Part shown: piece by piece, positions 3,207 to 58,882 of the stretch | Numbering within the stretch: the stretch's first letter is position 1 | How the letters are laid out: each line of letters begins with the position of its first letter | Assembly: GCA_963797095.1 (NCBI GenBank) | Contig: CAWCNY010000005.1 | Span: 221,231-285,230, forward strand | DNA: 64,000 bases | Source of the DNA: an uncultured Chloroflexia bacterium | GTDB taxonomy: Bacteria > Chloroflexota > Chloroflexia > QHBQ01 > JADMIH01 | Reading direction: 5' to 3' | Notes under the pieces: model-generated | What the model saw: the letters and a program-made list of their open reading frames with translations, nothing else | Told to the model about the DNA's origin: nothing | The model's database searches: none | Made by a program: the position numbers and the translations under genes

Positions 3207-4033
3207 AACGTGTCGCGATCATTGGTCCGGGCGGCGCGGACAAGTCAGCATTGCCCGCAGGGAGCAACATGCGCCAAAACTATCCCATTCTTGAATTCAG
3301 CGCCCAGCCTGAGGGATTGATTGAGCCGAAGCGCCTCATCAAGCCGATCGAGGTGCCGGAGCGTGCGGTGGCCTGCTTCTTCCAGGATGTGATCACCCGC
3401 CTCTCGCAAGAGCACAAGGCCGAGGTTGTTACCCACCTGCGAAGCGAAATGGGCACGAACCCGGTATACCGCCTCGAATGGAACGGCAAGCCTCTTACTG
3501 TATTTCACCCCGGCGTGGGCGCGCCTCTTGCCGCCGGTTTCCTGGAAGAAGTGATCGCCCTCGGTTGCAACAAATTCGTGGCCTGCGGCGGCTGTGGGGT
3601 GCTCGATAGCAAGCTGACGGTCGGGCACGTTATCGTTCCAACTTCTGCGGTCCGTGACGAAGGAACCTCGTATCACTACTTGCCGCCGGGGCGCGAAGTT
3701 TCGGCCTCGAAAGAGGCGCTAACCGCCGTTATGCAGACCCTCGACGCCAACGCGATACCGTACACGGCGGGCAAGACCTGGACGACCGATGCCATCTATC
3801 GCGAAACACCCGAAAAGATCGCACTCAGGCGCTCGGAGGGCTGCATCTCGGTGGAGATGGAGGCTGCTGCCTTCTTCGCGGTGGCGCAGTTTCGCGGCGT
3901 GCAGATGGCCCAGATGCTCTACGGCGGCGACGATGTCGGCGGCGAGACCTGGGATAGTAGACACTGGGTCAGCCACACTTCCGTTCGCGAAAAGCTATTC
4001 TGGCTAGCCGCCGAAGCGTGCCTTTCACTGTAA
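3203..4033 (+). CDS. Nucleoside phosphorylase family protein (PNP/UDP phosphorylase family 1)
   Basis: Core motifs GVGAPLAAG, GGCGVL and the family hallmark SVEMEAAA. The true start may be the internal Met (MRQNYPILEF, about 3269). Confidence 0.55.
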   Translation: MKRVAIIGPGGADKSALPAGSNMRQNYPILEFSAQPEGLIEPKRLIKPIEVPERAVACFFQDVITRLSQEHKAEVVTHLRSEMGTNPVYRLEWNGKPLTVFHPGVGAPLAAGFLEEVIALGCNKFVACGGCGVLDSKLTVGHVIVPTSAVRDEGTSYHYLPPGREVSASKEALTAVMQTLDANAIPYTAGKTWTTDAIYRETPEKIALRRSEGCISVEMEAAAFFAVAQFRGVQMAQMLYGGDDVGGETWDSRHWVSHTSVREKLFWLAAEACLSL

Positions 4034-4037
4034 GCCT

Positions 4038-4679
4038 GTGCAAGAGTACTACAATCGCCGCGCCCGCGAGTACGAGGCCATCTACGCCACTGACGATCCG
4101 ACGCGCCGCGCCGAACTGGCAGCCATTGCGGCCCAGGTGGCGTCTCTGCTGGCCGGCAGGCGGGTCTTTGAAGTTGCCTGCGGAACCGGCTACTGGACAA
4201 CTATCATAGCTAAGGCCGCCTCCAATGTGACCGCCACCGACGCTTCCAAGGAAATGCTTGAGATCGCAAGCTCAAAGGCTCTTCCGCCCAACCGCGTTAC
4301 CTTCCTTACCGCCGATGCTTACGACCTCGCGAGTGTACCGGGCAAGTTCGATGCAGCGCTCGCCAACTTCTGGCTTTCGCACGTGCCGCGCGCCCGCATC
4401 GACGAGTTTCTCACAGGTCTGGGTGCCAGGCTAGAGCCAGGCTCGGTAGTGTTTATGGCCGACAATATGTATATGCCCGGCGTCGGTGGCGAATTAGTGA
4501 GCACGCCCGGCCACCCCGACACATTCAAGCTCCGCACCCTTGCGGATGGCTCGCAACATCTTGTGCTGAAGAATTACTACGACGAAGGTCAATTGCGTAC
4601 TCTCCTCAACTCTTATGCGTCCGATCTTCGGGTCCATATGGGCACTGCCTACTGGTGGTGTTCCTACAGCAAACCATGA
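4038..4679 (+). CDS. Class I SAM-dependent methyltransferase
   Basis: Motif I VFEVACGTGYWT. Rossmann-fold methyltransferase layout. Gap of 4 nt from the upstream gene. Confidence 0.7.
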   Translation: MQEYYNRRAREYEAIYATDDPTRRAELAAIAAQVASLLAGRRVFEVACGTGYWTTIIAKAASNVTATDASKEMLEIASSKALPPNRVTFLTADAYDLASVPGKFDAALANFWLSHVPRARIDEFLTGLGARLEPGSVVFMADNMYMPGVGGELVSTPGHPDTFKLRTLADGSQHLVLKNYYDEGQLRTLLNSYASDLRVHMGTAYWWCSYSKP

Positions 4680-5254
4680 AAGAGCGCGTTGTTGTGATCA
4701 TCACCGGGCTACCGAGCACCGGTAAGACTCATCTAGGGCGCGAGGTGGCGAGCAGGCTTGACCTGCCGTTCATCAACAAGGATGCCATCAAGGAAACGCT
4801 CTTCAACGAACTTGGCTGGAGCGACCGCGAGTGGTCGCGCAAACTTGGCTCTACCACCTATGGCATACTTTATTACCTCCTTGATGCGCTGATGCCTCCC
4901 GGCGTGTCGCTGGTAGTCGAGAGCAACTTCGAGGCCGACAAAGCCGGTCCTGAACTCGCGCAACGGATCGCCAGGCATGGCTACCGTGTTGTGCAGGTGT
5001 TGTGTAAGACCGACGGCCCGACGCTGGTGGAAAGGTTCAAAGAACGAAGCGAATCGGGAGAAAGGCACCCGGGCCACGTGGACAGCCTTGCCGAACTGAC
5101 ACCGAAGTTGTTGAAAGGCCGGATCGAACCGGTCGCGCTGCCCGGACCGCTGATTGAGGTAGATACAACCGACTTCGATATGATAGACTACGACACACTT
5201 GTAGACTCGATTCGCGATGGCCTCGGCAGCCAGAAAGGTGATGTACAGGAATGA
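4676..5254 (+). CDS. P-loop kinase (AAA_33/zeta-toxin-like ATP-binding protein)
   Basis: Walker A GLPSTGKTHLG. Start ATG overlaps the methyltransferase stop (ATGA). The ORF-track start at 4655 is probably too far upstream. Confidence 0.55.
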   Translation: MKERVVVIITGLPSTGKTHLGREVASRLDLPFINKDAIKETLFNELGWSDREWSRKLGSTTYGILYYLLDALMPPGVSLVVESNFEADKAGPELAQRIARHGYRVVQVLCKTDGPTLVERFKERSESGERHPGHVDSLAELTPKLLKGRIEPVALPGPLIEVDTTDFDMIDYDTLVDSIRDGLGSQKGDVQE

Positions 5255-5595
5255 ACCCTTTAGAAAGCGTGCCGCAGATGGACGTTCAAACCACCCACGA
5301 TATGTGGCAGGTGGACGAGATCGCCTTACTGGACGTGCGCGAGCAGTCGGAGTGGGACCTCGGCCACGTTGACGGTATCAGCCTTATCCCGTTGGGCCAG
5401 CTGCCGATGCGCTGGCGCGAGCTAGACCCCGACAAGAAGTGGGTAATCGTTTGCCGTAGCGGCAACCGCAGCAACTATGCCGCCGCTCTCCTCAGGCAGG
5501 CGGGGCTCGATGCGGTCAACATGTGGGGCGGCATGCTGGATTGGAAAGCCGCAGGACTACCCATAACCCCACCGGGGATAGTCGAGGAACATTGA
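5251..5595 (+). CDS. Rhodanese-like sulfurtransferase domain protein
   Basis: Active-site loop CRSGNRS. Rhodanese fold motifs LLDVREQSEW and MWGGMLDW. ATGA overlap with the upstream kinase. Confidence 0.75.
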   Translation: MNPLESVPQMDVQTTHDMWQVDEIALLDVREQSEWDLGHVDGISLIPLGQLPMRWRELDPDKKWVIVCRSGNRSNYAAALLRQAGLDAVNMWGGMLDWKAAGLPITPPGIVEEH

Positions 5596-5894
5596 TCTGC
5601 CTGAGCGAGGCTAATAGCTGTACTTACGGCTGTTGTTGCCCGATTTTTTCGGAAGCGATCGGTACGTGTCTTATTCTCCCCCCATATATTAAAGGACTTT
5701 GGCGGGCCTAAACTGGACAGGTTTTGGAGTGTACTTTAGTACGGTCTTTATTGTGGGAACAAACAGATAGCTATGCGAATAACCATAATTTTTGGGCTGT
5801 GAGATGCTATAATTGAGCCATACGACGCGCAACCGTTAGCCCCACTTTTCGTCATACTTGTGACAACGGTATAGCGATCGATAGCTAACTGATA

Positions 5895-7784
5895 GTGAGT
5901 TTCCACATGACGCTCAGTTCCTTTCGTGCGCGCCGCTCTGGTGGCCCGCGTCTCCTCATGGCTTTAATGCTGACGTTCTCTGCCCTGGGAATATTGCTCG
6001 CGCCGATCTCGCGTGCGGGTGTAGCGCAGGCGCAGACTACCCGCGCACGAACCCCCGGAGACGGCGACCTTTTCGGGATCGTGATGCGCGATCCCTTCTA
6101 CGAGTTCAACACCGACCCGGTCAACTATCCGATGCAAGCCAACAAGACGGCCCTGGAAGAGCAAGCGCAGGAGCTTGCGAACGCGGGTGTGCGCTGGGTG
6201 CGCCTGGAGTTCTTCGCCGACTATGACGGCAGCGTACCCGCAGGGGACATCAACTGGGCCAAGTACGACTACTTCATCAACGAGTTGGCCCCCAAGTACG
6301 ACCTCAAGGTGCTGGCCCTCCTGAACGTGGGGATTGTATCGTACGAGGGCCAGACAGTGCGCACAATCGCGTTCAACGACCCACCGGACGGTGCGGGCGC
6401 AGATCCCAACGACGGCTCCAACCACTTCATCCGCGTGTTCCGCGACCGAGCCGCGCAGGTAGCAGCACATTACGGGCATGCGATCAGCGCCTACGAGATC
6501 GTCAACGAACCGAACATTAGCTGGGATCTGTGGCAGGACAGCCACTATATTGAGGCCGAGATCAAATCTGAAAGATATGCAGCGCTGCTGTCGAGCGCCT
6601 ACGAAGCGATCAAGACCGTGGACCCCGACGCGCAGGTGATCACAGGCGGGATCATGATCGGCTCGCCACCCGAAGAACAAGATCGCAATGAGTTTGACTA
6701 CCTGTACGAGCTATATACATCCAAGTGGGTGGCCCGATATAAGTTGGATGGTGGGCCAAACAAACCCGGCTGGAACGTCGTGCCCTGGGACGGGGTGGCC
6801 CTGCACCCCTACTGGATGGACGCGCCAACGCTTTTTGCGCTGATCAACGACTTCTCACGCAAGCTGCGCGACCGCCAGGACTTCAAGAGCAGGCTGTGGA
6901 TCACCGAGGTGGGCGCGCCGGCCGATCCGCCTACTGGGCAGACCGACAAGCCGTCACAGCAGGAGATCGACCAGGCGTACTACCTGCGCGCCATCTACGG
7001 CGGCATCCTGGACAGCGACGAATTGAGCGCCAACGTCGCGCACGTCTTCTGGTTCAAGTACGAGGACTTTGTGCCCGGAGACTACACCCACAACTACGGG
7101 CTGGTGCGCCTTGAGGAGAACGCCACCCATGACGACTACGCACCTTCGGGCAAGGTGTGGGTGCACAAACTGGCATTCAAGGCATACCAGGAGCTTGCGC
7201 TCGGCTACAGCATCACCGACCCCGTGGCGGAAGCGGATGCCCGCGCCCAGAACTTCTTCTACTTCGATGCTACCCACCAGGCCATCGCGCCTCAGTTCGC
7301 CGAATACTGGATCGAGAAGGGGGGGTTAGAGCGCTTCGGCTATCCCATATCGCGCCCCGTGACGATTAAAGGCGTACTCAGCCAGTTCTTCCAACGCGCG
7401 GTGTTCGAGTACCACCCGGAATACGCGCGCACCCCTAACGAGGTGCTACTGCGTCTGGTTGGCAGCGAGCTTGCCGTTGGGCGCAATTTCGCTCCCGCCG
7501 ACAAATCGGTGCTCTCCAGCGACGGAATGTTCTTCCCCGAAACCGGGCACACACTGAAAGACCCATTCCTCACATTCTGGAATGAGCGCGGCGGCCTTGC
7601 TGTGTACGGCTACCCGATCTCCGAGCAGCTTTCGGAACAGGCACCTGACGGCCATATCTACACCGTCCAATATTTCGAGCGTAACCGCCTGGAGTACCAC
7701 CCCGAAGCAGCGGGCACACCCTACGAAGTACAGCTTGGCCTGCTTGGCGCGGCCCTCCTGAAAGAGGACCTCTGGTGGCGCTAG
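5895..7784 (+). CDS. Secreted clan GH-A glycoside hydrolase (GH5/GH39-like) with two C-terminal tandem repeats of about 75 aa (LGFP-like)
   Basis: Signal peptide. Acid/base motif YEIVNEPN and nucleophile motif LWITEVGAP. Two C-terminal repeats containing GG(L)xxFGYPIS...QYFERxRxEYHP...QLGLLG. Confidence 0.7.
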   Translation: MSFHMTLSSFRARRSGGPRLLMALMLTFSALGILLAPISRAGVAQAQTTRARTPGDGDLFGIVMRDPFYEFNTDPVNYPMQANKTALEEQAQELANAGVRWVRLEFFADYDGSVPAGDINWAKYDYFINELAPKYDLKVLALLNVGIVSYEGQTVRTIAFNDPPDGAGADPNDGSNHFIRVFRDRAAQVAAHYGHAISAYEIVNEPNISWDLWQDSHYIEAEIKSERYAALLSSAYEAIKTVDPDAQVITGGIMIGSPPEEQDRNEFDYLYELYTSKWVARYKLDGGPNKPGWNVVPWDGVALHPYWMDAPTLFALINDFSRKLRDRQDFKSRLWITEVGAPADPPTGQTDKPSQQEIDQAYYLRAIYGGILDSDELSANVAHVFWFKYEDFVPGDYTHNYGLVRLEENATHDDYAPSGKVWVHKLAFKAYQELALGYSITDPVAEADARAQNFFYFDATHQAIAPQFAEYWIEKGGLERFGYPISRPVTIKGVLSQFFQRAVFEYHPEYARTPNEVLLRLVGSELAVGRNFAPADKSVLSSDGMFFPETGHTLKDPFLTFWNERGGLAVYGYPISEQLSEQAPDGHIYTVQYFERNRLEYHPEAAGTPYEVQLGLLGAALLKEDLWWR

Positions 7785-7795
7785 TAGTGCGTCAA
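7781..7795. repeat. IS630 left terminal inverted repeat plus TA
   Basis: Exact reverse complement of 9051-9065. Confidence 0.8.
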
Positions 7796-8457
7796 GCGGC
7801 ATCTGATAGGTTCTCGGATTGAAGTGAGGCTTGCACTTGGATGGTTGGATACAGCTTCTTCAGTTTGATACGCGCATCAGCTGTCGTGAAGCGCCATTCC
7901 ACTGTCGCCTTGGCGTTGTTGCGCTCCTCTACCCAGCCGCTCGTTTCCATCCCCAACCGCTCTTGGTCTGCTATTCGCCGGTCCAAACACTGCTTGCTAA
8001 GCACCGATAGCTCGATCTCCGCCATGTTCAACCAACTACCATGCTTGGGTGTGTAGTGGACCTCCAACCTGTTGATGATCCGCCTCGCCTCTTCGGGCTC
8101 AAACACTTCATAAAGTGCGGATAGGTCATGCGTATTCAGATTGTCCATCACCAACCGGATCAAAACGGCATCTGGGAAGTAGGGGTCCACCAACTCACGC
8201 ATACAGTAGGCAAAGTCCACTTTGGTGCGATGCTCCGTTACCACTACCTCTCGCCAGTTCTCAAGACGAGCAAATAACATGAACAGGTTGCTCACACCGT
8301 TACGCACATACTCGTAGTCCACCCTCGCTGGCAGGCCGGGTGCTACCGGTAGGGGAGTGTGGCTCTCCCCGATTAGCTGCTTGCTCGTTTCATCGAGGCA
8401 CACCAGCGGGTATTCAGGATCATAGGGAGCAGTGTACAAATCGAGCACATCTTCCAT
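7792..8457 (-). CDS. IS630 transposase C-terminal DDE_3 part (orfB frame). The frame is open upstream to the A7 run, where a -1 shift would fuse it to orfA.
   Basis: DDE-domain motifs VCLDETSKQ, LVMDNLNTH and SWLNMAEIE. The -1 frame after AAAAAAA reads KKNEIKPWLKEEYCIPPQADADFVYHMEDVLDL, continuing directly into this ORF. Confidence 0.75.
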   Translation of the reverse strand: MEDVLDLYTAPYDPEYPLVCLDETSKQLIGESHTPLPVAPGLPARVDYEYVRNGVSNLFMLFARLENWREVVVTEHRTKVDFAYCMRELVDPYFPDAVLIRLVMDNLNTHDLSALYEVFEPEEARRIINRLEVHYTPKHGSWLNMAEIELSVLSKQCLDRRIADQERLGMETSGWVEERNNAKATVEWRFTTADARIKLKKLYPTIQVQASLQSENLSDAA

Positions 8458-8507
8458 ATGGTAGACAAAGTCGGCATCGGCCTGTGGTGGAATACAATAT
8501 TCCTCCT

Positions 8508-8984
8508 TCAGCCATGGCTTGATTTCGTTTTTTTCAGAACAGAGCGCACCGTCTCATGAGAGACCGCATCAACATAGCCAAGTACTGCCAATCTGTCGGC
8601 CAGCAAGCGCAACGACCAGTGCTCTCGCCCGGTGGGTGGAGAGGAGCAGGCCAGGGCGAGCAGGTGAGCTTCCACTTCCCCATCCAGCTTGCGCTCTCGC
8701 CAGCCGGTCGGTCGGCGCTGATGCAAGGCTGCATCCAACCCTTCTTCAACGAAGCGCTGACGGACACGATGAATGGTTTGGCTACCGACATCGTGAGCAT
8801 CTTGGATAGCCTCATCGGTCCAAGCGGGGCCCTGTGGACCGCAACCAGCTTTGAGCAAGATCTGGGCATGGGTACGCACGCGACCAGGAGCGGTGCCAGT
8901 GCGGACCAGTTTGTCAAGTTCAATGCGCTCATCAGCAGTCAGAGTTACAATGTATTTAGCGGGCTTCGGATCGGGTACCTCCAA
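8508..8984 (-). CDS. IS630 transposase N-terminal part (HTH DNA-binding, orfA frame)
   Basis: Typical IS630 N-terminus (paired HTH; LADRLAVLGYVDAVSHETVRSVLKK). Ends with LKKTKSSHG just after an A7 slippery run (minus strand, plus coordinates 8528-8534). Confidence 0.75.
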   Translation of the reverse strand: MEVPDPKPAKYIVTLTADERIELDKLVRTGTAPGRVRTHAQILLKAGCGPQGPAWTDEAIQDAHDVGSQTIHRVRQRFVEEGLDAALHQRRPTGWRERKLDGEVEAHLLALACSSPPTGREHWSLRLLADRLAVLGYVDAVSHETVRSVLKKTKSSHG

Positions 8985-9050
8985 TCAACAGATCTTGAAA
9001 CCATCAGTTGTTGGATTCTACCCGATCCATGCCTGTTTACCACTTCCCAT

Positions 9051-9065
9051 TTGACGCACTACTAG
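9051..9065. repeat. IS630 right terminal inverted repeat plus TA
   Basis: Exact reverse complement of 7781-7795. Confidence 0.8.
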
Positions 9066-9075
9066 CTTAGACAAA

Positions 9076-9106
9076 ACAAAACGTCTGCTCAACTGGCAGA
9101 CGTTTA
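9076..9106. terminator. Bidirectional intrinsic terminator between convergent genes
   Basis: aaaacgtctgc-tcaactg-gcagacgttt: a 10-bp GC-containing stem with an A-run upstream and a T-run downstream, so it reads as a terminator on both strands. Confidence 0.6.
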
Positions 9107-9125
9107 GTTCGTGCGCGGGTTTCCG

Positions 9126-11141
9126 CTAGATCCTGGACAGTATGTCCGCTTTCTTGGCGGCATAGTCGTCCTCGGTGATGAGGCCGGCGTCCAGCATGGT
9201 CTTTAGCTGTTTCATCTTGGCGATAGGGTCGTCCTGATTGGCCTTCGACCTGCTTGAGCTACGCGATCCGGCAGCCTTGCTGCCTTTCGTCTCGTCCGAT
9301 GATGTCTGGTCCGAGTAGGCCCCGTTCCGGTTGAGCGCGCCTGAGTTTCTCTTGCCCGCGGTCGAACCGTCTGGCATGTCCCTCAACGATAGGTTGATAC
9401 GGGTTGGCAAATCGCCAAACTCGGAAGGCGCTTCGGACTCCAGCCGCTGAGTTGCCATGGCGGTCATGTTGCGGTAAATCTCTTCCATATCGAGGTCCAT
9501 ATCGACAGAGGCGGCAAGGAGAGGCCCGCTGGCGGTGGAGCCTGGCATCGGCAAGAGGTAGTCGTCCGAGCCCATGGGGGCTGTCGGGCGGGCATTATTG
9601 AAGTCGTCGTACTCAGAGTCGTCGGCTTGTTGCGGTTCCGGTTGGAGTTCGCTCTGTGCAAGCGATATGACTTCTGCTGCGGGTGCGGGAGTGGCTTCGT
9701 CCCATTCCATTACCGTCGCCTGTTGGGTAGGCTCGGGCTGTGCAGATGGAACTCCTTCACCGGCTGCCTGCAACGGGCCGCTGGTGACGATTGGGGCGAG
9801 AGGCGCGCTTACATCTATGGGCGTGGTAGGCAACGCGATTCGCTGAAGGCCGCCTATCACGTCCAGGTCCTGCGCAGTCTCAGGCGCGACTTGCTGAGCC
9901 TGAAGCGGGCCGGTTACGGGCGTATCATCGCCGTCGCCGCTCGCTTCACCGGCCTGGTCGTTGTTGAGGTCGATCTCGCTGTTGTCGGGCAAGCTCCCTA
10001 TCAGGGCGGCCTCATCCAGCGCCGCTAGAGAGTACAACGGGCCGCTCTTAGGTAGTGGCGAGGAGTTCAGTGGCGAGCTTATGCGGTTAGTGCCATCGCC
10101 GGACAACGGCCCCGAAGGCGGAGTGAATACGGCTATCTTCTCCAGGGTTGTGAGAGGAGGGAGAGGGCGCATGTGCGGCTCGGTGTCGGTGGCAGGGCCA
10201 CTGTTCGTCAAGGTAATAGGTTGTATATCGGCAATTGCCGGGGCTTGAAACGCTGCGCTCCACTGCATTGGCCTGGTAGGCACCCCATCCTCCAGGCCGG
10301 AGCTTTGCAATATGCTCTGCAACACCGACTCGGGCGTTGGAATGTAGTTCGCGGGCATAGGCGCGGCGCTCGCCGCTATCTGTGCATCGAGGCCACCGGA
10401 GTTATTGGAAATCATGCCCAGCGGAGAAAGGCCACCGGTCGAAGGGGCTTCCAGGCCCGGGGCCATTACGTGACGTTGCTCTTGAGACAATGCCCAGGCC
10501 GGTTTGGCAGGTGCGGGCACCGCTGCCGGCTGAGAAGGCGCAGGGACCGCTTCCTCCTGGCTTTCGGCTGGCGGGTTAGCCGTCGCACGTGGCGTGCCTT
10601 GCAGCCTGTCGCTGTACTGAAAGGCCATATCATACATTCTGGAGGCTTGCGTCCTGGGAAGGTTCTCGATGCTCATCGTCCAGCCCTGGATCGCGTCCAG
10701 TTTCAGGTTGAAGCCGTTCTTATTCTCATAGAGGGCAGCCGCGCTCACGTCGCGCCACCAGCAATCATCGAGATCGACTTTGCCGAGCACCTTCTTACGG
10801 AAGAGCATCACGCGCTTGTTAGTGATCACGGCACAATCGGGAGCATGAGCCAATCCACCCTTGCCGGTGGCAACATACTCGACCGATTCGCCCTGGGTGA
10901 GAATGGGAGTAGCCCGCTCGTAGGTTTGCTTAACCAGCGCCCGGTCCTGCCCATCAGGGCTGAACCGGACTACAGGGTCCATATTTACCGCTATTACAGC
11001 GGGGTTGGGAGCGCGGTGCTCGGCTGTCGGCGCACTATCTCCAAGAGGGGCCCCACACCTGCTGCAATAAGGTGAGCCCACTAGATTCCCTGCCTGACAA
11101 TTATGGCATTGCACCTGCGATTGCATTTTGGCTGGTGCCAT
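9126..11141 (-). CDS. Zinc-ribbon / bacterial PH-like / disordered linker / SHOCT domain protein
   Basis: N-terminal CxxC...CxxC zinc ribbon (CHNCQAGNLVGSPYCSRCG). Then a roughly 130-aa bPH-like domain (VITNKRVMLFRKK...). Then about 400 aa of Pro/Ala/Ser-rich low-complexity sequence. C-terminal SHOCT motif (KMKQLKTMLDAGLITEDDYAAKKADIL). Confidence 0.6.
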   Translation of the reverse strand: MAPAKMQSQVQCHNCQAGNLVGSPYCSRCGAPLGDSAPTAEHRAPNPAVIAVNMDPVVRFSPDGQDRALVKQTYERATPILTQGESVEYVATGKGGLAHAPDCAVITNKRVMLFRKKVLGKVDLDDCWWRDVSAAALYENKNGFNLKLDAIQGWTMSIENLPRTQASRMYDMAFQYSDRLQGTPRATANPPAESQEEAVPAPSQPAAVPAPAKPAWALSQEQRHVMAPGLEAPSTGGLSPLGMISNNSGGLDAQIAASAAPMPANYIPTPESVLQSILQSSGLEDGVPTRPMQWSAAFQAPAIADIQPITLTNSGPATDTEPHMRPLPPLTTLEKIAVFTPPSGPLSGDGTNRISSPLNSSPLPKSGPLYSLAALDEAALIGSLPDNSEIDLNNDQAGEASGDGDDTPVTGPLQAQQVAPETAQDLDVIGGLQRIALPTTPIDVSAPLAPIVTSGPLQAAGEGVPSAQPEPTQQATVMEWDEATPAPAAEVISLAQSELQPEPQQADDSEYDDFNNARPTAPMGSDDYLLPMPGSTASGPLLAASVDMDLDMEEIYRNMTAMATQRLESEAPSEFGDLPTRINLSLRDMPDGSTAGKRNSGALNRNGAYSDQTSSDETKGSKAAGSRSSSRSKANQDDPIAKMKQLKTMLDAGLITEDDYAAKKADILSRI

Positions 11142-11962: not shown

Positions 11963-12405
11963 TCAGCAATCTCCTTCAAGATGGTGGGCAGGTCCCGCGC
12001 CAGGTTGGAGTTAGCGAGCACTCGCCCCGCGCCCGCTGCCTTCGCCTTGCGTCGCGCCTCCGTGTCCATGTGCGGCCCGAAAGCCACCACGGGTGTGCCG
12101 CGTTGGGCGGCCTCGCGGGTGGTGGTCTCCCAGTCACCGCGCGATGACAGGTCCACTACCAGCACATCGCCGCCCGGCAGGGGCACACCTGGGCGCAGCA
12201 TCACAGGCTTCAGCCCGGCGTGCCGCGCCATGTTCTGAAGTTGCACCCCGAACATCAGGTCGGTGCACAGCAGGACGGCGATACGCTCTCGCGTCGGCAC
12301 GGTTCCATCCAATGGAGTGCCTGCCTCATCCCGGCTGTTGGTGCTTCTCTGGTTAGCGATCTCTGCCACTCGCGTTAGGGTATCAGAATGCCGGTCCAGC
12401 GTCAA
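11950..12405 (-). CDS. Divergent stand-alone CheY-like receiver domain protein
   Basis: Receiver-like pattern: IAVLLCTDL, DVLVVDLSS, VVAFGPH, AKAAGAGRVL. Overlaps the downstream cupin gene by 13 nt. Confidence 0.4.
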   Translation of the reverse strand: MTLDRHSDTLTRVAEIANQRSTNSRDEAGTPLDGTVPTRERIAVLLCTDLMFGVQLQNMARHAGLKPVMLRPGVPLPGGDVLVVDLSSRGDWETTTREAAQRGTPVVAFGPHMDTEARRKAKAAGAGRVLANSNLARDLPTILKEIAEWGK

Positions 12406-12549
12406 GTTAGGCAGGGCTAATGCAAAGTCAGATAAGACGGTGGGAAAGGCCGCCCATCTCGGCCCTTGTCATTCTTCACTTCGTTCAGAATGACGCATCC
12501 AAACTTGGTGTGTCCGATACCGACTTTGCTTCAGCCCTGCAAGTTAGGC
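12403..12549. repeat. MITE-like small repeat element: 11-bp direct repeats flanking 16-18 bp imperfect inverted repeats around an internal hairpin
   Basis: Direct repeat caagttaggca at 12403-12413 and 12539-12549. Inverted repeats cagggctaatgcaaagtc and gactttgcttcagccctg. Internal hairpin gtcattct-N11-agaatgac at 12468-12494. A related copy lies at 58535-58607. Confidence 0.5.
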
Positions 12550-12643
12550 ACCAAATCTTGCCAGGATCGCCTGAGTGCTATAGTATTATGGTGGGTGGCT
12601 TTGCAATTTGCCCACCGCCCGAAGGTGAGGATATCCCGCTCGC

Positions 12644-14428
12644 ATGAGAAAAGCTGATATTCTTGACGACCAGCAAGCACAGGTGCGCGCCGCCGAACGC
12701 GAGGCTCTGAGCGCGCTCTCCTCGGCCATCGCGCCTCTCGAACCCGATGATGCAGATGTGGCTTCGCTTCGGCAGGCCGAGGCGGACCTTGAGGAGCTTT
12801 TCCTGTTGGTCGTTGTGGGGGAGTTCAATTCGGGCAAGTCCTCATTCATCAATGCGCTGCTGGGCCAGGAGGTGCTCCCGGAAGGGGTCACACCCACCAC
12901 CGCTACGATCAGTCTGCTACGATACGGTACGTCGGTGACTGAACACCAGGTGGCCGATTTCGTCACCGAGCGTACCTATCCAGCCGAGTTCCTGCGCGAG
13001 ATCAGCATCGTGGACACGCCCGGCACTAACGCGATCATACGCCGCCACGAGGAATTGACGCGCACCTTCGTGCCTCGCTCGGACATGGTGCTCTTCATTA
13101 CATCGGCGGACCGCCCTTTCACCGAATCGGAGCGGTCATTCATGGAGACGATACGGGAGTGGGGCAAGAAGATCGTGCTGGTGCTGAACAAGATCGATCT
13201 GCTGGGCAGCGAGGACGATCTCAATCGCGTACTCCACTTCATCGAGGAGAACAGCGTGGCCCTGCTGGGCCAGAAACCCGACGTGTTCCCCGTGTCGGCG
13301 CGGCTCGCCAAGCGCGCCCGCTCTACCGATACGTTCGCCGAGCGCGAAGCCCTGTTGCGAGCCAGCCGCATGGACGCGCTGGAGCATTACATATTCTCGA
13401 CCTTGGACGAGGCAGGGCGCATACGCCTGAAGCTCTCGACACCGCTGGGTGTTGCCAATCGAACGCTCGAAAAGTACCAGGAGATCGCACATGAGCGGCT
13501 GGACGTGCTGGCCGAAGATTTCAAGACCGTGCAGAACATCGAGGATCAGCTTCGCATCTACTCGGAAGATATGCATCGCGAGTTCGAGGGCAGGCTCGCC
13601 AACATCGAAAACATCATCTTTGAATTGAAGGAGAGGGGCGACATCTTCTTCAACGAGACGCTGCGTATCGGTCGCATACGCGACCTGCTGAACGCCAAGA
13701 AGGTCGAAAGCGATTTCCAGAAGCAGGTGCTGGCCGACACCGCCCAGCGCGTGGACGATGCCACCAACGGCCTCATAGATTGGATGGTGGACCAGGACCT
13801 GCGGATGTGGCAATCGGTGACCGACTACGTCAACCGCCGTCAGGCTGTGGGGGTGGGGGCGTCGCAGGGCTACCAGGAGCGAGTGATGGGAGGAACTGGC
13901 ATGACGGGCGTGGCGGGCTTCGCCTACAACCGCGATGCTCTGTTGCGGTCGGTTGTGAAGGAGGCCCGCCACGTGGTGGAGAACTACGACCGCGAGGAAG
14001 AGGCCACCATCATAGCGCAGGATATGCGCAACGCCGTCGGCGTGATGCTTGGGGCAGGTGGGGTAGCCGCGCTGGGCGTGCTGGTGGCGGCTACTGTTAC
14101 GGTAGCTTTCCTGGATGTTACCGGCATAACGGCGGCCATCCTCGCGGGGGCTATCGGCCTCTTTATCCTCCCGTACCGGAAGCGGAAGGCGCAGGAAGAA
14201 TTCCGGGCACGCACGCAGGAATTGCGCGATAAGCTAAGTAGCGCCATGACCTCACAGTTCAACTCGGAGCTTACCCGCTCTATCGAGCGGATACGTGACG
14301 CCATCGCGCCCTATACTCGCTTCGTGCGCCTTGAGCAGGAACGAGTTTCGAAAGCGGACAGTAGCCTCTCCGAAGTGGCGCGCAAGCTCACTGCCTTGCG
14401 CGGCCAGATTGAGACCATCGGGAGGTAA
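12644..14428 (+). CDS. Bacterial dynamin-like protein (large GTPase with membrane paddle)
   Basis: G1 GEFNSGKSSFINAL, G2 T, G3 DTPG, G4 NKID. C-terminal hydrophobic hairpin GVMLGAGGVAALGVLVAATVTVAF...ILAGAIGLFILPY. Confidence 0.8.
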   Translation: MRKADILDDQQAQVRAAEREALSALSSAIAPLEPDDADVASLRQAEADLEELFLLVVVGEFNSGKSSFINALLGQEVLPEGVTPTTATISLLRYGTSVTEHQVADFVTERTYPAEFLREISIVDTPGTNAIIRRHEELTRTFVPRSDMVLFITSADRPFTESERSFMETIREWGKKIVLVLNKIDLLGSEDDLNRVLHFIEENSVALLGQKPDVFPVSARLAKRARSTDTFAEREALLRASRMDALEHYIFSTLDEAGRIRLKLSTPLGVANRTLEKYQEIAHERLDVLAEDFKTVQNIEDQLRIYSEDMHREFEGRLANIENIIFELKERGDIFFNETLRIGRIRDLLNAKKVESDFQKQVLADTAQRVDDATNGLIDWMVDQDLRMWQSVTDYVNRRQAVGVGASQGYQERVMGGTGMTGVAGFAYNRDALLRSVVKEARHVVENYDREEEATIIAQDMRNAVGVMLGAGGVAALGVLVAATVTVAFLDVTGITAAILAGAIGLFILPYRKRKAQEEFRARTQELRDKLSSAMTSQFNSELTRSIERIRDAIAPYTRFVRLEQERVSKADSSLSEVARKLTALRGQIETIGR

Positions 14429-49019: not shown

Positions 49020-49068
49020 ATCCCTCAAAGTGAGTGAGCCGGACTGAGCAATATGGAGAATTCGACCA

Positions 49069-49095
49069 ACGCCCCTTCGCTGGGCGTTTTTGTTT
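49069..49095 (+). terminator. Second terminator-like hairpin upstream of the aspartokinase start
   Basis: aacgccc-cttcgct-gggcgtt followed by tttgttt, about 30 nt before the ask start. Confidence 0.45.
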
Positions 49096-49126
49096 GCCCA
49101 ATTTTCATGATACAGGGTGCAGCATA

Positions 49127-50494
49127 GTGAGTTTTGTAGTACAAAAGTATGGCGGTACATCGGTGGCGACCACCGAACGCATCCGGGCGGTTGCCCACCG
49201 CATTCGCGCTCGCCACGATCAAGGCGACCGGTTGGTGGTGGTGGTGAGCGCTATGGGCAACACCACCGACGACCTGTTGGCCCTTGGACTCTCCCTCAAC
49301 CCACAGGCCTATGGTCGCGAAGTCGATCTGCTTATGTCCACGGGCGAGGTGGTGTCCTGCGCCCTCCTGGCCCTTGCTCTGCAAGACCTGGGTGTGCCCG
49401 CCCGCGCATTCACCGGCGCACAGGCGGGCATCCTCACCGACGGCAATTTCAGCAGGGCCGCCATCGCCGGTCTGAAACCCGACCGCCTCCAAGCCTCCCT
49501 GGCAATCGGCGAGGTGCCGGTAGTAGCCGGCTTCCAGGGCATAAGTGGCACCGACATCGAGATCGAAGTAACAACCCTCGGTCGTGGCGGCTCCGATACC
49601 ACCGCCGTTGCCCTCGCCGCAGGCTTACACGCTGAAAGGTGCGAAATCTATACCGACGTGGACGGTATCTTTACCGCCGACCCGCGTGTGGTCCCAGGCG
49701 CTCGCCGCCTGTCGCGTATCACGCCTACCGAGATGCTGGAGCTTGCTCAGCAAGGCGCTCAGGTAATGCACCCCCGCGCCGTCGAGCTTGGCGGCATCTA
49801 CAACATACCAATCCGGGTGGCCTCCAGCTTCAACGATGGGCCGGGCACATGGATCATAGCGCCCGGTTCGCCCCTACCGGCAATATATGGACCTGCCTTT
49901 CACACTCTTTCTCACAATCTGGAGGAGCAATTGGAGCTAAAGAACAAAGTCTCAGGCATAGCCCACGATACTAACGTGGCCCGCATAACAGTCTTCGGCC
50001 TCCCCAGGCCCCAGTTCGCCCTCTTCCGTCTCTTCGGCCCCCTGGCCGAGGCTGGCATCAACGTCGACGCCATAGCTCATTCAATCGAGCCGGGCGGCGA
50101 GCATGCCGACTGCTCGTTTACCGTCACCGAGTCCGATCTCACCCGCGCTTTGTCGATCACCCGGCATACAGCCACCAACCTGGGCGCGTACAACGTCCAA
50201 GGCGAGCGCGCCGTAGGCAAAGTCTCCGTCATCGGCCTCGGTGTGCAACACGTACCCGGCCTCGCCTGCCACGCTTTCGCCGCCCTTGAAAGCGCGGGCA
50301 TAGAGATCGACATGGTCACTACCTCGCAGGTACGTATTACCTGCCTGGTCCTCGAATCGCGGGTCGTTGAGGCCGCGCTGCTCTTGCACTCCGCTTTCGG
50401 CCTCGACGGGGAGCCAACAAGCGACACGCATCTCAAACCGGACATCATCGCCCCTGCACTGGCAGGCGTGCTCACCCCAGGGGGTGGAGCATGA
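49127..50494 (+). CDS. ask: Aspartate kinase with C-terminal ACT domains
   Basis: GTG start just before VVQKYGGTSV. AK motifs VVSAMGNTTD and two ACT-like repeats. The ORF-track 5' extension covers the terminators and is not coding. Confidence 0.8.
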   Translation: MSFVVQKYGGTSVATTERIRAVAHRIRARHDQGDRLVVVVSAMGNTTDDLLALGLSLNPQAYGREVDLLMSTGEVVSCALLALALQDLGVPARAFTGAQAGILTDGNFSRAAIAGLKPDRLQASLAIGEVPVVAGFQGISGTDIEIEVTTLGRGGSDTTAVALAAGLHAERCEIYTDVDGIFTADPRVVPGARRLSRITPTEMLELAQQGAQVMHPRAVELGGIYNIPIRVASSFNDGPGTWIIAPGSPLPAIYGPAFHTLSHNLEEQLELKNKVSGIAHDTNVARITVFGLPRPQFALFRLFGPLAEAGINVDAIAHSIEPGGEHADCSFTVTESDLTRALSITRHTATNLGAYNVQGERAVGKVSVIGLGVQHVPGLACHAFAALESAGIEIDMVTTSQVRITCLVLESRVVEAALLLHSAFGLDGEPTSDTHLKPDIIAPALAGVLTPGGGA

Positions 50495-58195: not shown

Positions 58196-58227
58196 CAAAA
58201 AACCCTCGTCCCAAGCAAGGGACGAGA
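58196..58227 (-). terminator. Leader terminator of the T-box-like element upstream of argG
   Basis: Minus strand reads ctcgtccc-ttgctt-gggacgag followed by ggtttttt. Confidence 0.6.
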
Positions 58228-58481
58228 GTCAAGTTACTCCCGTGGTGCCACCCTCATTGTCACATTTATGGCCTGTGACCGCTCGTGGTTATTGCTTGCA
58301 TGGTGACCAACCACCCTCTCCTACTTGCGCGTCATTGACACTTTCTTCGGTAGGCCGCTCCGCGGCGCGTTCGCTACAACAGGTCCGTCGGGCTTCCACC
58401 ATCCCCAATTCGCTAAGGTCCCGGCTACAGCTACTATTCCACTTCAACACGGGCATTGCGGCATCAGCCGCTATTCGATTA
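58228..58481 (-). promoter_or_regulatory. T-box-like leader RNA (putative tRNA-sensing riboswitch) upstream of argG
   Basis: Minus strand carries AAUGAGGGUGGCACCACGGGAG, matching the T-box consensus AAUUAGGGUGGNACCGCG (16/18). It sits immediately 5' of the terminator whose 5' strand can pair alternatively. The leader is about 255 nt, transcribed from a TTGACG-17-TAAACT promoter (plus coordinates 58488-58516). Confidence 0.5.
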
Positions 58482-58534
58482 TCCCATAGTTTAGCATACG
58501 GCTAATAACCCGTCAAGTGGCAAACTGAACAAAA

Positions 58535-58607
58535 CAGGGCGATTGCAAAGTCGGTAGTTGGCGTACCAGAGTGGATTTGTCATTCTGAACGAAGTAAAGA
58601 ATGACAA
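58535..58607. repeat. Second, partial copy of the MITE-like element: TIR-like cagggcgattgcaaagtc plus hairpin ttgtcattct-N11-agaatgacaa
   Basis: TIR matches the 12412-12429 TIR at 16/18. The hairpin stem is identical to the 12468-12494 hairpin, with the loop reverse-complemented. Confidence 0.5.
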
Positions 58608-58882
58608 GACGTAAACTCGTAGCATTCCCTGGCATTCCCTATGCTCTCTACATGACCTTGCCTGCCAAGCAAAACGGTGAGTAGGCTATCTCCTCAACAG
58701 CCTCCTAACCATGGACCCACCCCTCCCTTATGATAAAATAGAGCAGACCATATCAATCGCCACTATGCATCGTCTTTCGTCCGTCGTCCAAAAGGGATAC
58801 CACCATCAACCCTGATACCCTGACCCACAGCACAAAGCTGCAAAACACTATAGCCGGGCGCTTCAAGGGCCTCATCCTCGAT

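Follow-up and report, generated by a model that had tools for sequence, protein, structure and literature searches.

A probable ISAs1-family miniature transposable element with a REP-like passenger hairpin between divergent promoters of a Chloroflexia genome

Insertion sequences of the ISAs1 family duplicate about 8-10 bp of their target, typically 9-10 bp. Their inverted repeats are 14-22 bp long and start with CAGGG, with direct repeats of 10 bp (PMC11946415), and in ISArsp11, a family member on the Arthrobacter plasmid pA58H3, the ends read CAGGGCTGATGCAAAGTCG (IRL) and CAGGGCTAATGCAAAGTCG (IRR), again with a 10-bp direct repeat (PMC6305408). Two families of small tagged hairpins are also relevant here. 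The CGTC/TGTC-tagged REP superfamily, which includes Neisseria dRS3, is delimited by an unpaired CGTC, TGTC or CCTC tag at one end, an 8-9-bp stem beginning with A-T, a 4-5-nt loop and a 3-nt tail, often with inverted dimers and many copies in a genome; CGTC-type REPs are reported to be devoid of associated Y1 transposases, and for Chloroflexi the same survey lists GTAG repeats only (Di Nocera et al. 2013, PMC3733652). [quoted passage not shown] Our literature search found no paper explicitly describing miniature inverted-repeat elements (MITEs) derived from ISAs1, including any from Chloroflexia, and a search by sequence strings returned nothing relevant.

The 64-kb stretch of Chloroflexia DNA that was analysed, hereafter the window, contains one complete and one truncated copy of a small palindromic element (Table 1). 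With a probability of roughly 85%, we explain copy 1 as a 128-nt MITE of the ISAs1 family that carries a passenger hairpin from a second repeat system and is neutral at its site. Copy 1 is non-coding, has 19-nt terminal inverted repeats within a flanking direct repeat, and matches the profile of the element with E = 8e-27; the open reading frames overlapping it hold no Pfam domains. The direct repeats, inverted repeats and hairpin named in the original prediction are all in place: the 11-bp repeat CAAGTTAGGCA lies at 12403-12413 and 12540-12550 and has just these 2 matches in the whole window, even with one mismatch allowed, inverted-repeat detection pairs 12411-12429 with 12522-12540 (19 nt, 89% complementary), and the hairpin GTCATTCT-N11-AGAATGAC occupies 12468-12494.

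Table 1. Positions of the two element copies, their parts and the neighbouring promoter-like sites in the window.
Feature	Coordinates	Strand	Sequence or remark
Inferred promoter of the divergent small-ORF/epimerase-like genes	12377..12405	(-)	TTGACG (12405..12400), 17 nt, TGaTACCCT (..12377)
Left target site duplication (TSD)	12403..12411		CAAGTTAGG, 9 bp, direct repeat
Copy 1, complete 128-nt ISAs1-family MITE (probable)	12412..12539	(-)	strand refers to the tagged hairpin
Left terminal inverted repeat	12412..12430	(+)	CAGGGCTAATGCAAAGTCA; 18/19 identical to ISArsp11 IRR CAGGGCTAATGCAAAGTCG
GC-rich hairpin in MITE arm	12448..12464		GGCCG-N7-CGGCC
Central tagged hairpin	12465..12498	(-)	C-GTCATTCT-GAACGAAGTGA-AGAATGAC-AAG (minus strand)
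Right terminal inverted repeat	12521..12539	(-)	minus strand reads CAGGGCTGAAGCAAAGTCG; 18/19 identical to ISArsp11 IRL CAGGGCTGATGCAAAGTCG
Right TSD	12540..12548		CAAGTTAGG, followed by host CACC...
Promoter-like site of the dynamin-like GTPase operon	12558..12586	(+)	TTGCCA-17-TAGTAT
Promoter-like site on the argG side	58488..58516	(-)	TTGACG-17-TAAACT, with TG
Copy 2, truncated 74-nt half-MITE	58535..58608	(+)	profile E = 2e-17
Copy 2 inverted repeat	58535-58553		CAGGGCGATTGCAAAGTCG
Copy 2 TGTC-tagged hairpin	58578-58605		followed by AAG; arm between inverted repeat and hairpin

Evidence for an insertion comes from three Chloroflexia relatives (L038, L039 and L040), which share the gene order of the window and encode a dynamin that is 84-86% identical. 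In these genomes the sequence runs continuously from ...GTCAAG into the promoter, and 137 nt, comprising the element and one duplication and bounded by CAAGTTAGG in the window, are missing. Since syntenic relatives lack exactly these 137 nt, copy 1 is best read as an insertion that was accompanied by a 9-bp TSD. Consistently, the conserved part of the TSD occurs once in the empty sites, and the CAAG with which the left TSD starts is host sequence common to all three. The 11-bp direct repeat is therefore real but consists of the 9-bp TSD and 2 chance bases: the additional CA on the left already belongs to the inverted repeat, which starts CAGGG..., and that on the right to the host, as GGCACC is also found at the empty site of L038. 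That the repeats might be coincidental, as the original prediction had allowed, is contradicted by the empty sites, and related elements were found beyond the window. The identification of copy 1 as a small non-autonomous mobile element is supported by the empty orthologous sites, the TSD, inverted repeats of the transposon type and the occurrence of decayed members of its family in other Chloroflexia.

The ends of copy 1 fit the ISAs1 definition in length (14-22 bp) and in their CAGGG start (consensus CAGGGCTNANGCAAAGTCG), and its TSD lies within the range of the family. A metagenome scan for ISAs1-type ends (query CAGGGCNNNNGCAAAGTCGGTA) retrieved a 1374-bp element (positions 22-1395 of metagenomic locus L165) that has the same ends as copy 1 and carries an ISAs1 transposase gene, the protein of which scores 204 bits against NF033564, 'ISAs1 family transposase' (cut-off 70), and also matches PF13808 and PF01609. 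Furthermore, unrelated elements of 123-210 nt with the same ends are flanked by exact 9-10-bp duplications (L135, L148, L166, L180, L187 and L195); L166 and L180, for example, are devoid of the hairpin. Environmental bacteria seem to harbour ISAs1-derived MITEs commonly, but these are little described. Closer relatives of the window element were found in one other Chloroflexia metagenome-assembled genome (MAG), where three decayed copies of about 126-128 nt (L002, L004 and L020) match the profile and have the central hairpin at the same position as in copy 1; L020 also keeps the GC-rich arm hairpin (GGGCGGCCTT). Because these relatives are decayed, the MITE family may be extinct. The original prediction had suggested a search for a cognate transposase; no ISAs1 transposase was found in the window or in the fetched Chloroflexia loci.

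Copy 1 accordingly resembles ISAs1 insertion sequences such as ISArsp11 in its CAGGG-starting ends (18/19) and 9-10-bp type of TSD, but differs from them in its length of 128 nt, in having no transposase gene, and in an interior that is unrelated and filled by a hairpin of another family. In being small, non-coding, polymorphic for presence and absence, and placed in promoter-proximal intergenic DNA, it is similar to MITEs derived from DDE-type insertion sequences. A plausible route is that the ISAs1-family DDE transposase of a full-length element elsewhere would recognise the 19-bp ends CAGGGCTNANGCAAAGTCG and mobilise the MITE in trans, with staggered cuts 9 bp apart at insertion and gap repair that would duplicate CAAGTTAGG.

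An IS200/IS605 or IS630 parent had been proposed for the element, which conflicts with its ISAs1 ends and its TSD of the ISAs1 type. A broader form of this idea, in which the whole element is a REP/REPIN or IS200/IS605-derived palindrome moved by a tyrosine transposase (HUH, RAYT-like) that acts on hairpins in single-stranded DNA, gains from the centre being a genuine REP-like tagged hairpin, from the two-armed 'dimer' hairpins that exist elsewhere, and from documented REPs inserted inside palindromes. It is nevertheless highly unlikely, as its outer ends are those of an ISAs1 DDE transposon and a 9-bp duplication was made at insertion, which IS200/IS605 and REPIN-type elements are not known to generate. 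Membership in the IS200/IS605 type would entail the absence of a TSD, Y1 hairpin ends and a flanked RAYT/TnpA gene; the 9-bp TSD and DDE-type ends led us to reject it. Moreover, the hairpin pairs in the fetched loci enclose a small GIY-YIG ORF and no other gene, and CGTC-type REPs have been reported without Y1 transposases (PMC3733652).

Copy 2 is in the opposite orientation and matches the reverse complement of the right half of copy 1. It contains the 27-nt hairpin of copy 1 again, at 58579-58605 and with a single mismatch; no match arose in 100 shuffles. While the loop alone had been described as reverse-complemented, it is the whole copy that is inverted: in this orientation 64 of 79 columns (81%) are identical, compared to 60% in that originally proposed. 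A second end and a duplication were searched for at copy 2, and neither was found. As the right inverted repeat and the duplication are both missing, its description as a decayed, partial copy was correct, and it would represent an older copy that has lost everything past the central hairpin. For the corresponding empty-site comparison, the loci of HAD-hydrolase homologues (L133 and L134) showed no synteny on the argG side. The profile of the element detected no copies in the window besides these two.

Both copies lie between divergent promoters and upstream of the -35 boxes, none of which they overlap. The promoter of the small-ORF/epimerase-like genes was not flagged by the consensus scan and was inferred from the blocks GTCAAG and AGGGTATCA, which have a fixed spacing and are conserved in four genomes. 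Copy 1 adjoins its -35 box, and the CAA at 12403-12405 in the left TSD is part of this host TTGACG box on the minus strand. On the other side, the promoter-like site of the dynamin operon begins 9 nt 3' of the right TSD and is intact, with TGCTATAGTAT conserved in the relatives. The argG-side site is 18 nt away from copy 2, which places this copy upstream of the -35 box as well. Copy 1 would hence have entered a spacer of approximately 15 bp between the back-to-back promoters of the small-ORF/epimerase-like and dynamin-like GTPase genes and spared both -35 boxes. As both boxes are intact, the site tolerates insertion, and copy 1 is most likely neutral cargo there; we infer no function of the element at either locus.

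The promoter-proximal place of both copies and the strong predicted structure (folding of whole copy 1 compared to shuffles: z = -4.5 as DNA and z = -6.9 as minus-strand RNA) could also point to a host cis-regulatory site, an operator, a palindrome bound by a protein, or a leader RNA with secondary structure common to the dynamin and argG promoter regions. In addition, two of the 3 occurrences of the octamer CGTCAAGT in the window are 4 and 17 nt away from the copies. However, the three relatives, in which the promoter blocks are conserved, have no copy 1 in this promoter region, and the position of both copies upstream of the -35 boxes means that they would not be transcribed from either promoter. 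The duplication and the transposon ends account for the structure, only half of the palindrome is left in copy 2, and no relevant Rfam family was detected in the whole window at gathering thresholds, in 12300-12700 at permissive E-values, or in 12 hairpin-rich loci. A host cis-regulatory site is therefore very unlikely, and the proposed recruitment as an operator is left unsupported by the absence of copy 1 in the relatives and the position of both copies upstream of the -35 boxes. We see the element as mobile DNA of a common kind and not as a regulatory site. In annotation, mobile-element DNA is the appropriate label for the 137 nt and for the 74-nt relic, not promoter or operator, and the 11-bp repeat should be marked as an insertion scar. 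For the dynamin and epimerase-like operons, this means that back-to-back promoters withstand being separated by a 137-bp insertion.

Two unrelated repeat systems are combined in the element, which the original prediction had not recognised; the second is represented by the central hairpin. The exact 27-mer was found at 36 loci with unrelated flanks from at least 8 phyla (Chloroflexota, Verrucomicrobiota, Bacteroidota, Ignavibacteria, Armatimonadota, Hydrogenedentota, Clostridia and Hyphomicrobiales were among the taxa), including 6 copies in one Rikenellaceae MAG, and had no match in the viral scan. Relatives of the form GTCATTCTGA-RCGNAGY-GAAGAAT are present in viral contigs (112 hairpins), and their apex pair covaries (G..C 89, A..T 16, mixed 2; Fisher 7e-17) while the loop base is free. 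The REP-like nature suggested in the original prediction applies to the central hairpin. The stem has 9 positions (ATTCTGARC/GYGAAGAAT), two of which are G.A mismatches, and is followed by a CTC or GAC tail; in a nearest-neighbour DNA model, the long-form monomer hairpin did not stand out above shuffles. In the common long form (...GAAGAATCTC) the tag is unpaired.

By its features, the hairpin of copy 1 can be classified as the 'short form' of a CGTC-tagged, REP-like, Ssn-type module. With the CGTC/TGTC-tagged REPs it shares the tag (CGTC in copy 1, TGTC in copy 2) and a stem starting with A-T and T-A (ATTC...GAAT); both families form inverted dimers, occur in several phyla including Bacteroidota, and have some members inside other palindromes. 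In contrast to these REPs, the window-type stem has a tandem GA/GA mismatch and a GNA triloop closed by C-G instead of a 4-5-nt loop, and the short form in the window has its tag paired with a 3' GAC (GTC/GAC) and a tail other than CCA. Inverted dimers and many copies per genome were found in the hairpin superfamily rather than in the window, with two-armed forms at L006, L026, L031, L004, L117 and L126.

Runs of at least 4 additional pairs surround the hairpin at 13% of loci compared to 3% of controls (L022, L030 and L031). A general position at the apex of longer palindromes was considered and rejected, as it applies to a minority of loci only. These apical hairpins in unrelated palindromes of a subset of genomes, together with REPs noted within palindromes in the literature, would fit a REP-type hairpin that seeded or targeted a pre-existing palindrome, the likeness of the arms to ISAs1 ends being coincidental. 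We regard this as extremely unlikely, because 18/19 identities at each end to ISArsp11, a named ISAs1 element, are not plausibly due to chance, these ends also delimit a transposase gene and several MITEs with 9-10-bp duplications, and hairpin-less MITEs such as L166 and L180 suggest that transposition proceeds normally without it. Within an ISAs1-family MITE, the hairpin would instead be a passenger from a C/TGTC-tagged REP-like family (GTCATTCT-GA-RCGNAGY-GA-AGAAT), which probably entered by nested insertion or was captured in a progenitor; the 27-nt short form may have arisen from the two-armed form through deletion between two AGAAT pentamers.

In other genomes, the hairpins form the inverted ends of units of approximately 0.45 kb that encode a single-domain GIY-YIG protein of approximately 100 aa (PF01541, E = 3e-12), and in 15/15 fetched loci from 4 independent contexts this gene is bracketed by hairpins. 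The protein had no matches in NCBIfam or PDB, the Pfam GIY-YIG domain being its one match, and a search of viral contigs for close relatives of the protein from L120 returned only itself. No hairpin-bounded autonomous element of 0.25-3.5 kb other than the GIY-YIG unit of L120 was detected in the fetched loci, and the window contains no GIY-YIG gene.

This arrangement recalls NTS-ssnA-NTS, as relatives of the window hairpin flank the GIY-YIG gene on both sides. Both kinds of motif begin with CGTCATTC, end with GAATC, and combine a core hairpin with a 5' tag that gives orientation, and the catalytic Tyr/Tyr/Glu spacing of the GIY-YIG proteins is the same as in SsnA to within one residue. They differ in that the SRM string, which matched Neisseria NTS controls, found no match in the two window copies or in the long form, in that the window has no ssn-like gene, and in that its hairpin rides in a DDE-type MITE. 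A clade of Ssn-like GIY-YIG nuclease genes seems to have these hairpins as its repeats. Such hairpins are present in at least two independent families of ISAs1 MITEs (that of the window and that of L156/L184), which invites the speculative and unlikely reading that the hairpin is no dead passenger and that DDE-type MITEs are vehicles spreading recognition hairpins for Ssn-like single-strand nucleases, with the exactly conserved 27-nt short form of at least 8 phyla as an actively generated or selected ssDNA signal. If so, the short form could modulate the recombination of incoming DNA and would not be a decay product.

Hairpins of the GTCATTCTGA-RCGNAGY-GAAGAAT type occur frequently in Bacteroidota, Verrucomicrobiota, Chloroflexota and phage-like contigs and are missed by the published string; the family should be useful for cataloguing Ssn specificities and for explaining assembly breaks and spurious small ORFs.

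Copy 1, a palindromic element in the intergenic region that separates the dynamin gene from a divergent gene set, is an insertion. In three comparison loci (L038, GCA_035474135.1; L039, a JGI metagenome; L040, a Logan assembly), dynamin orthologues are 84-86% identical and the gene order is the same as in the window. An alignment of the four intergenic sequences shows three common blocks: ...TAGGGTATCAGAATG..., ...GTCAAG and, farther downstream, TGCTATAGTAT with the start codon; GTCAAG runs straight into the downstream block in all three relatives, and the window has 137 extra bases exactly there. Since CAAG, which opens the left repeat, is common to the empty sites, it represents host sequence, as does GGCACC after the right repeat, which is also found in L038. 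What the insertion left behind is a 9-bp duplication of the target site, CAAGTTAGG; the other 2 bases of the 11-bp direct repeat are the inverted-repeat start on the left (CA) and, by chance, host sequence on the right (CA). The original prediction of a small mobile element is therefore borne out by the 137 nt missing from three syntenic relatives, the duplication and the transposon ends, and its direct repeats, inverted repeats and hairpin are all present at 12403-12550, with no third match to the 11-mer in 64 kb when up to 1 mismatch was allowed. The 148-nt stretch around copy 1 folds at -29 kcal/mol as DNA (z = -4.5 vs shuffles) and at -63.5 kcal/mol as minus-strand RNA (z = -6.9). The window has a G+C content of ~60%, and its proteins have their closest named relatives in Chloroflexia MAGs. 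In L037 (Logan ERR11718635), which carries an identical dynamin gene, the short-read contig starts inside the MITE, at the equivalent of window position 12510; contig breaks of this sort are typical of repeats, and this one would fit a genome in which the element occurs repeatedly.

Features of the two copies and their surroundings, with further sites in the window
Feature	Position	Strand	Remark
Copy 1	12412-12539		128 nt
11-bp direct repeat CAAGTTAGGCA	12403-12413 and 12540-12550		
19-nt inverted repeat	12411-12429 / 12522-12540		89% complementary
Hairpin GTCATTCT-N11-AGAATGAC	12468-12494
Dynamin-family GTPase	12644-14428	+	copy 1 neighbour
Small ORF and dTDP-sugar-epimerase-like gene		-	copy 1 neighbours
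Promoter-like site TTGCCA-17-TAGTAT, dynamin side	12558-12586	+	starts 9 nt past right duplication
Conserved blocks TTGACG, 17 nt, TGaTACCCT, divergent-gene side	12405..12400 (TTGACG)	-	fixed spacing in 4 genomes
Octamer CGTCAAGT	12400-12407 and 58511-58518		left of MITE ends by 4 and 17 nt
SAM riboswitch RF00162	48859-48961	+	80.7 bits; upstream of ORF 49034-50494
12-bp GC-rich hairpin, then T-run	58201-58230	-	just upstream of argG
Promoter-like site TTGACG-17-TAAACT, argG side	58516-58488	-	copy 2 lies 18 nt upstream
Copy 2	58535-58608		74 nt; intergenic, between argG (-) and HAD-IIA hydrolase (+)
Hairpin, second occurrence	58579-58605		27 nt, 1 mismatch

The ends of copy 1 identify its parentage. 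Terminal inverted repeats of ISAs1-family elements span 14-22 bp and start with CAGGG, with a 10-bp direct repeat (PMC11946415); ISArsp11, a 1,306-bp member, has IRL CAGGGCTGATGCAAAGTCG, IRR CAGGGCTAATGCAAAGTCG and a 10-bp direct repeat (PMC6305408, Table 3). The copy 1 ends, CAGGGCTAATGCAAAGTCA and CAGGGCTGAAGCAAAGTCG, each match those of ISArsp11 at 18/19 positions. Scanning metagenomes for CAGGGCNNNNGCAAAGTCGGTA gave 69 loci, many of them chance matches within genes. One locus (L165), however, contains a 1374-bp element bounded by these ISAs1-type ends, whose 401-aa ORF matches NCBIfam NF033564 'ISAs1 family transposase' (204 bits; cut-off 70) as well as Pfam DDE_Tnp_1_assoc and DDE_Tnp_1, and six others (L135, L148, L166, L180, L187 and L195) contain unrelated elements of 123-210 nt that share these ends and are flanked by exact duplications of 9 or 10 bp. 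The ISArsp11-like ends, the transposase element and these short elements make copy 1, with its 128 nt and 9-bp duplication, another ISAs1-type MITE, and copy 2 is a truncated relic. An IS200/IS605 or IS630 parent, as originally suggested, does not fit the ISAs1 ends and the duplication, since IS200/IS605-type elements leave none. No ISAs1 transposase was found in the 64-kb window or in three related loci of one Chloroflexia MAG (L002, L004 and L020).

The claim of two copies holds: the 27-nt hairpin recurs in copy 2, and 100 shuffles gave 0 such occurrences. Copy 2 aligns with the reverse complement of the right half of copy 1 at 64/79 identical columns (81%; CAGGGC..GCAAAGTCGGTA..GTCATTCTGAACGAAGTrAAGAATGACAAG), compared to 60% identity in the orientation assumed before, so that the entire copy is inverted rather than only its loop. 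Its lack of a right terminal repeat was confirmed, as neither a second end nor a flanking duplication is present past the hairpin. A family profile search found no copies in the 64-kb window besides these two, and neither site matched Rfam even at permissive thresholds. The three loci mentioned above, obtained by a genome scan for the hairpin, contain recognisable yet decayed copies of ~126-128 nt, matched by the profile, each with an inverted repeat ~50 nt ahead of the hairpin. Since these relatives carry the hairpin at the same distance from the inverted repeat, it was already in the MITE at the time the family spread, and the Chloroflexia copies now seen are old. A matching second arm is still present in L020 and L004 (E = 1e-30 to 1e-32); of the 5 window-type copies, 3 (copy 2, L002 and L004) have lost the second arm or retain it in decayed form. 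Copy 2 breaks directly after the hairpin, and the arm loss is compatible with, though not proof of, hairpin-promoted deletion.

Promoter-like sites adjoin each copy, in agreement with the promoter-proximal intergenic location noted originally. The -10 region on the dynamin side is conserved in relatives, and the conserved minus-strand blocks probably constitute the promoter of the divergent genes. Copy 1 occupies the ~15-bp spacer between the back-to-back -35 boxes and leaves both intact; copy 2 also lies ~100 nt upstream of a plus-strand promoter-like site. As neither copy overlaps a -35 box and copy 1 is absent from relatives, recruitment as an operator lacks support, and we found no evidence for a regulatory role of the element. 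The octamer CGTCAAGT occurs 3 times in the window, and both MITE-adjacent sites are minus-strand promoter -35 boxes (TTGACG), which may be a coincidence or a preference of insertion for promoter -35 regions. The MITE copy of L020 likewise abuts TTGACA. On the argG side, the hairpin between the promoter-like site and argG, at the end of a ~270-nt leader, looks like an attenuator or terminator; it matched no Rfam family.

The central hairpin is a repeat system distinct from the ISAs1 MITE. Its exact 27-mer occurs at 36 loci of the genome collection, in Chloroflexia, Verrucomicrobiota, many Bacteroidota, Ignavibacteria, Armatimonadota, Hydrogenedentota, one Clostridia MAG and one Hyphomicrobiales MAG, with flanks that are unrelated except for YTT ahead and AAR behind. 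A degenerate search of viral contigs yielded 112 relatives with the core GTCATTCT-GA-RCGNAGY-GA-AGAAT, in which R and Y covary (G..C 89, A..T 16, mixed 2; 107 distinct contexts, Fisher 7e-17) and the middle N is free. This fits a 5-bp stem topped by tandem G.A pairs and a C-G-closed GNA triloop. Mini-hairpins of the d(GCGNAGC) type are unusually stable in DNA, a property that the nearest-neighbour model does not capture. Most relatives end ...GAAGAATCTC and often have two inverted arms 10-60 nt apart; the window hairpin ends ...GAAGAATGAC and could have been derived from the two-armed form through a deletion between two AGAAT pentamers. Unlike the usual inverted dimers, a 9.8-kb contig (L083, IMGVR_UViG_3300045118_000738) bears at least 7 hairpins on a single strand (3717-9748), some in tandem at spacings of 33 and 49 nt. 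Sister hairpins with other stems (GTCATTGCGAGC..., GTCATTCCGAGCGAATGCGAGGAATC) lie directly beside the GTCATTCTGAGCG type in L050, L052, L073, L104 and L124 and in L080 and L081, which suggests that several subfamilies with compensating stem changes reside together.

Di Nocera et al. (PMC3733652) described a 'CGTC-tagged' REP superfamily, many repeats of which carry TGTC in place of CGTC; the stems measure 8-9 bp and begin with A-T pairs, the loop is short and the tail has 3 nt. Its members are mostly inverted dimers, are known from five phyla, among them Bacteroidetes and Chlorobi, have no known associated transposase, lie in some cases inside other palindromes, and include Neisseria dRS3 (PMC3733652). 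In 2025, dRS3 was extended to the 28-nt Neisseria Transformation Sequence (NTS) CGTCATTCCCGCGMAVGCGGGAATCYRG, which SsnA, a 94-aa single-domain GIY-YIG protein, cuts only as single-stranded DNA; across bacteria, ssn genes typically lie between such hairpins (NTS-ssnA-NTS; PMC11893778). The NTS and the window hairpin have CGTCATTC...GAATC in common. A GIY-YIG ORF in L120 (Pfam E = 3e-12) is enclosed precisely by two relatives of the window hairpin. When further loci were taken from contigs of three homologue clusters, including a Verrucomicrobiae MAG, 15/15 loci in four independent genomic contexts showed a ~100-aa GIY-YIG gene bracketed by hairpins, with GTCATTCTGAGCGAAGCGAAGAATC ~79 nt before the start and the inverted ...GATTCTTCGCTTCGCTCAGAATGAC at or past the stop; the window variant GAACGAAGTGA is present in one of the four contexts. 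The units (L120 10731-11231, equal to L204, and L205-L218) are ~0.45 kb long, with the gene within inverted GTCATTCTGAGCGAAGCGAAGAATC hairpins, and more than 1,700 close homologues, many on contigs <2 kb, suggest that the unit is multi-copy and possibly mobile. No GIY-YIG gene was found in the 64-kb window, and neither the window hairpin nor those of the units match the degenerate search string published for Ssn-related motifs (PMC11893778). The hairpin looks and behaves like an Ssn-type repeat and is a candidate for strict membership, as the GIY-YIG proteins are for cd10448. The most interesting by-product is the widespread GTCATTCTGA-RCGNAGY-GAAGAAT family itself, which surrounded a GIY-YIG gene at each of the loci examined for this link and is not covered by the motif as published.

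In its core the MITE carries a REP-like hairpin with a C/TGTC tag, of the type linked to Ssn-like GIY-YIG nucleases. The proposed REP-like family applies to this hairpin but not to the outer element, and the whole is a further instance of already known kinds. Since a second, unrelated ISAs1 MITE family (L156, L179, L184 and L202; 167 nt) also contains a two-armed member of the hairpin superfamily, GTCACTTCGAGCGAAGTGAGAAGTCTC ... CTCGAAATGAC, such hairpins have entered ISAs1 MITEs on no fewer than two occasions, whether by preferential insertion into palindromic DNA or by capture at MITE formation. Two perfect palindromes unrelated to the MITE, AACTTCACTTCGG...CCGAAGTGAAGTT and AACCTAACCTCACAC...GTGTGAGGTTAGGTT, lie upstream of the HAD-hydrolase of a relative (L134, ~850-1000).
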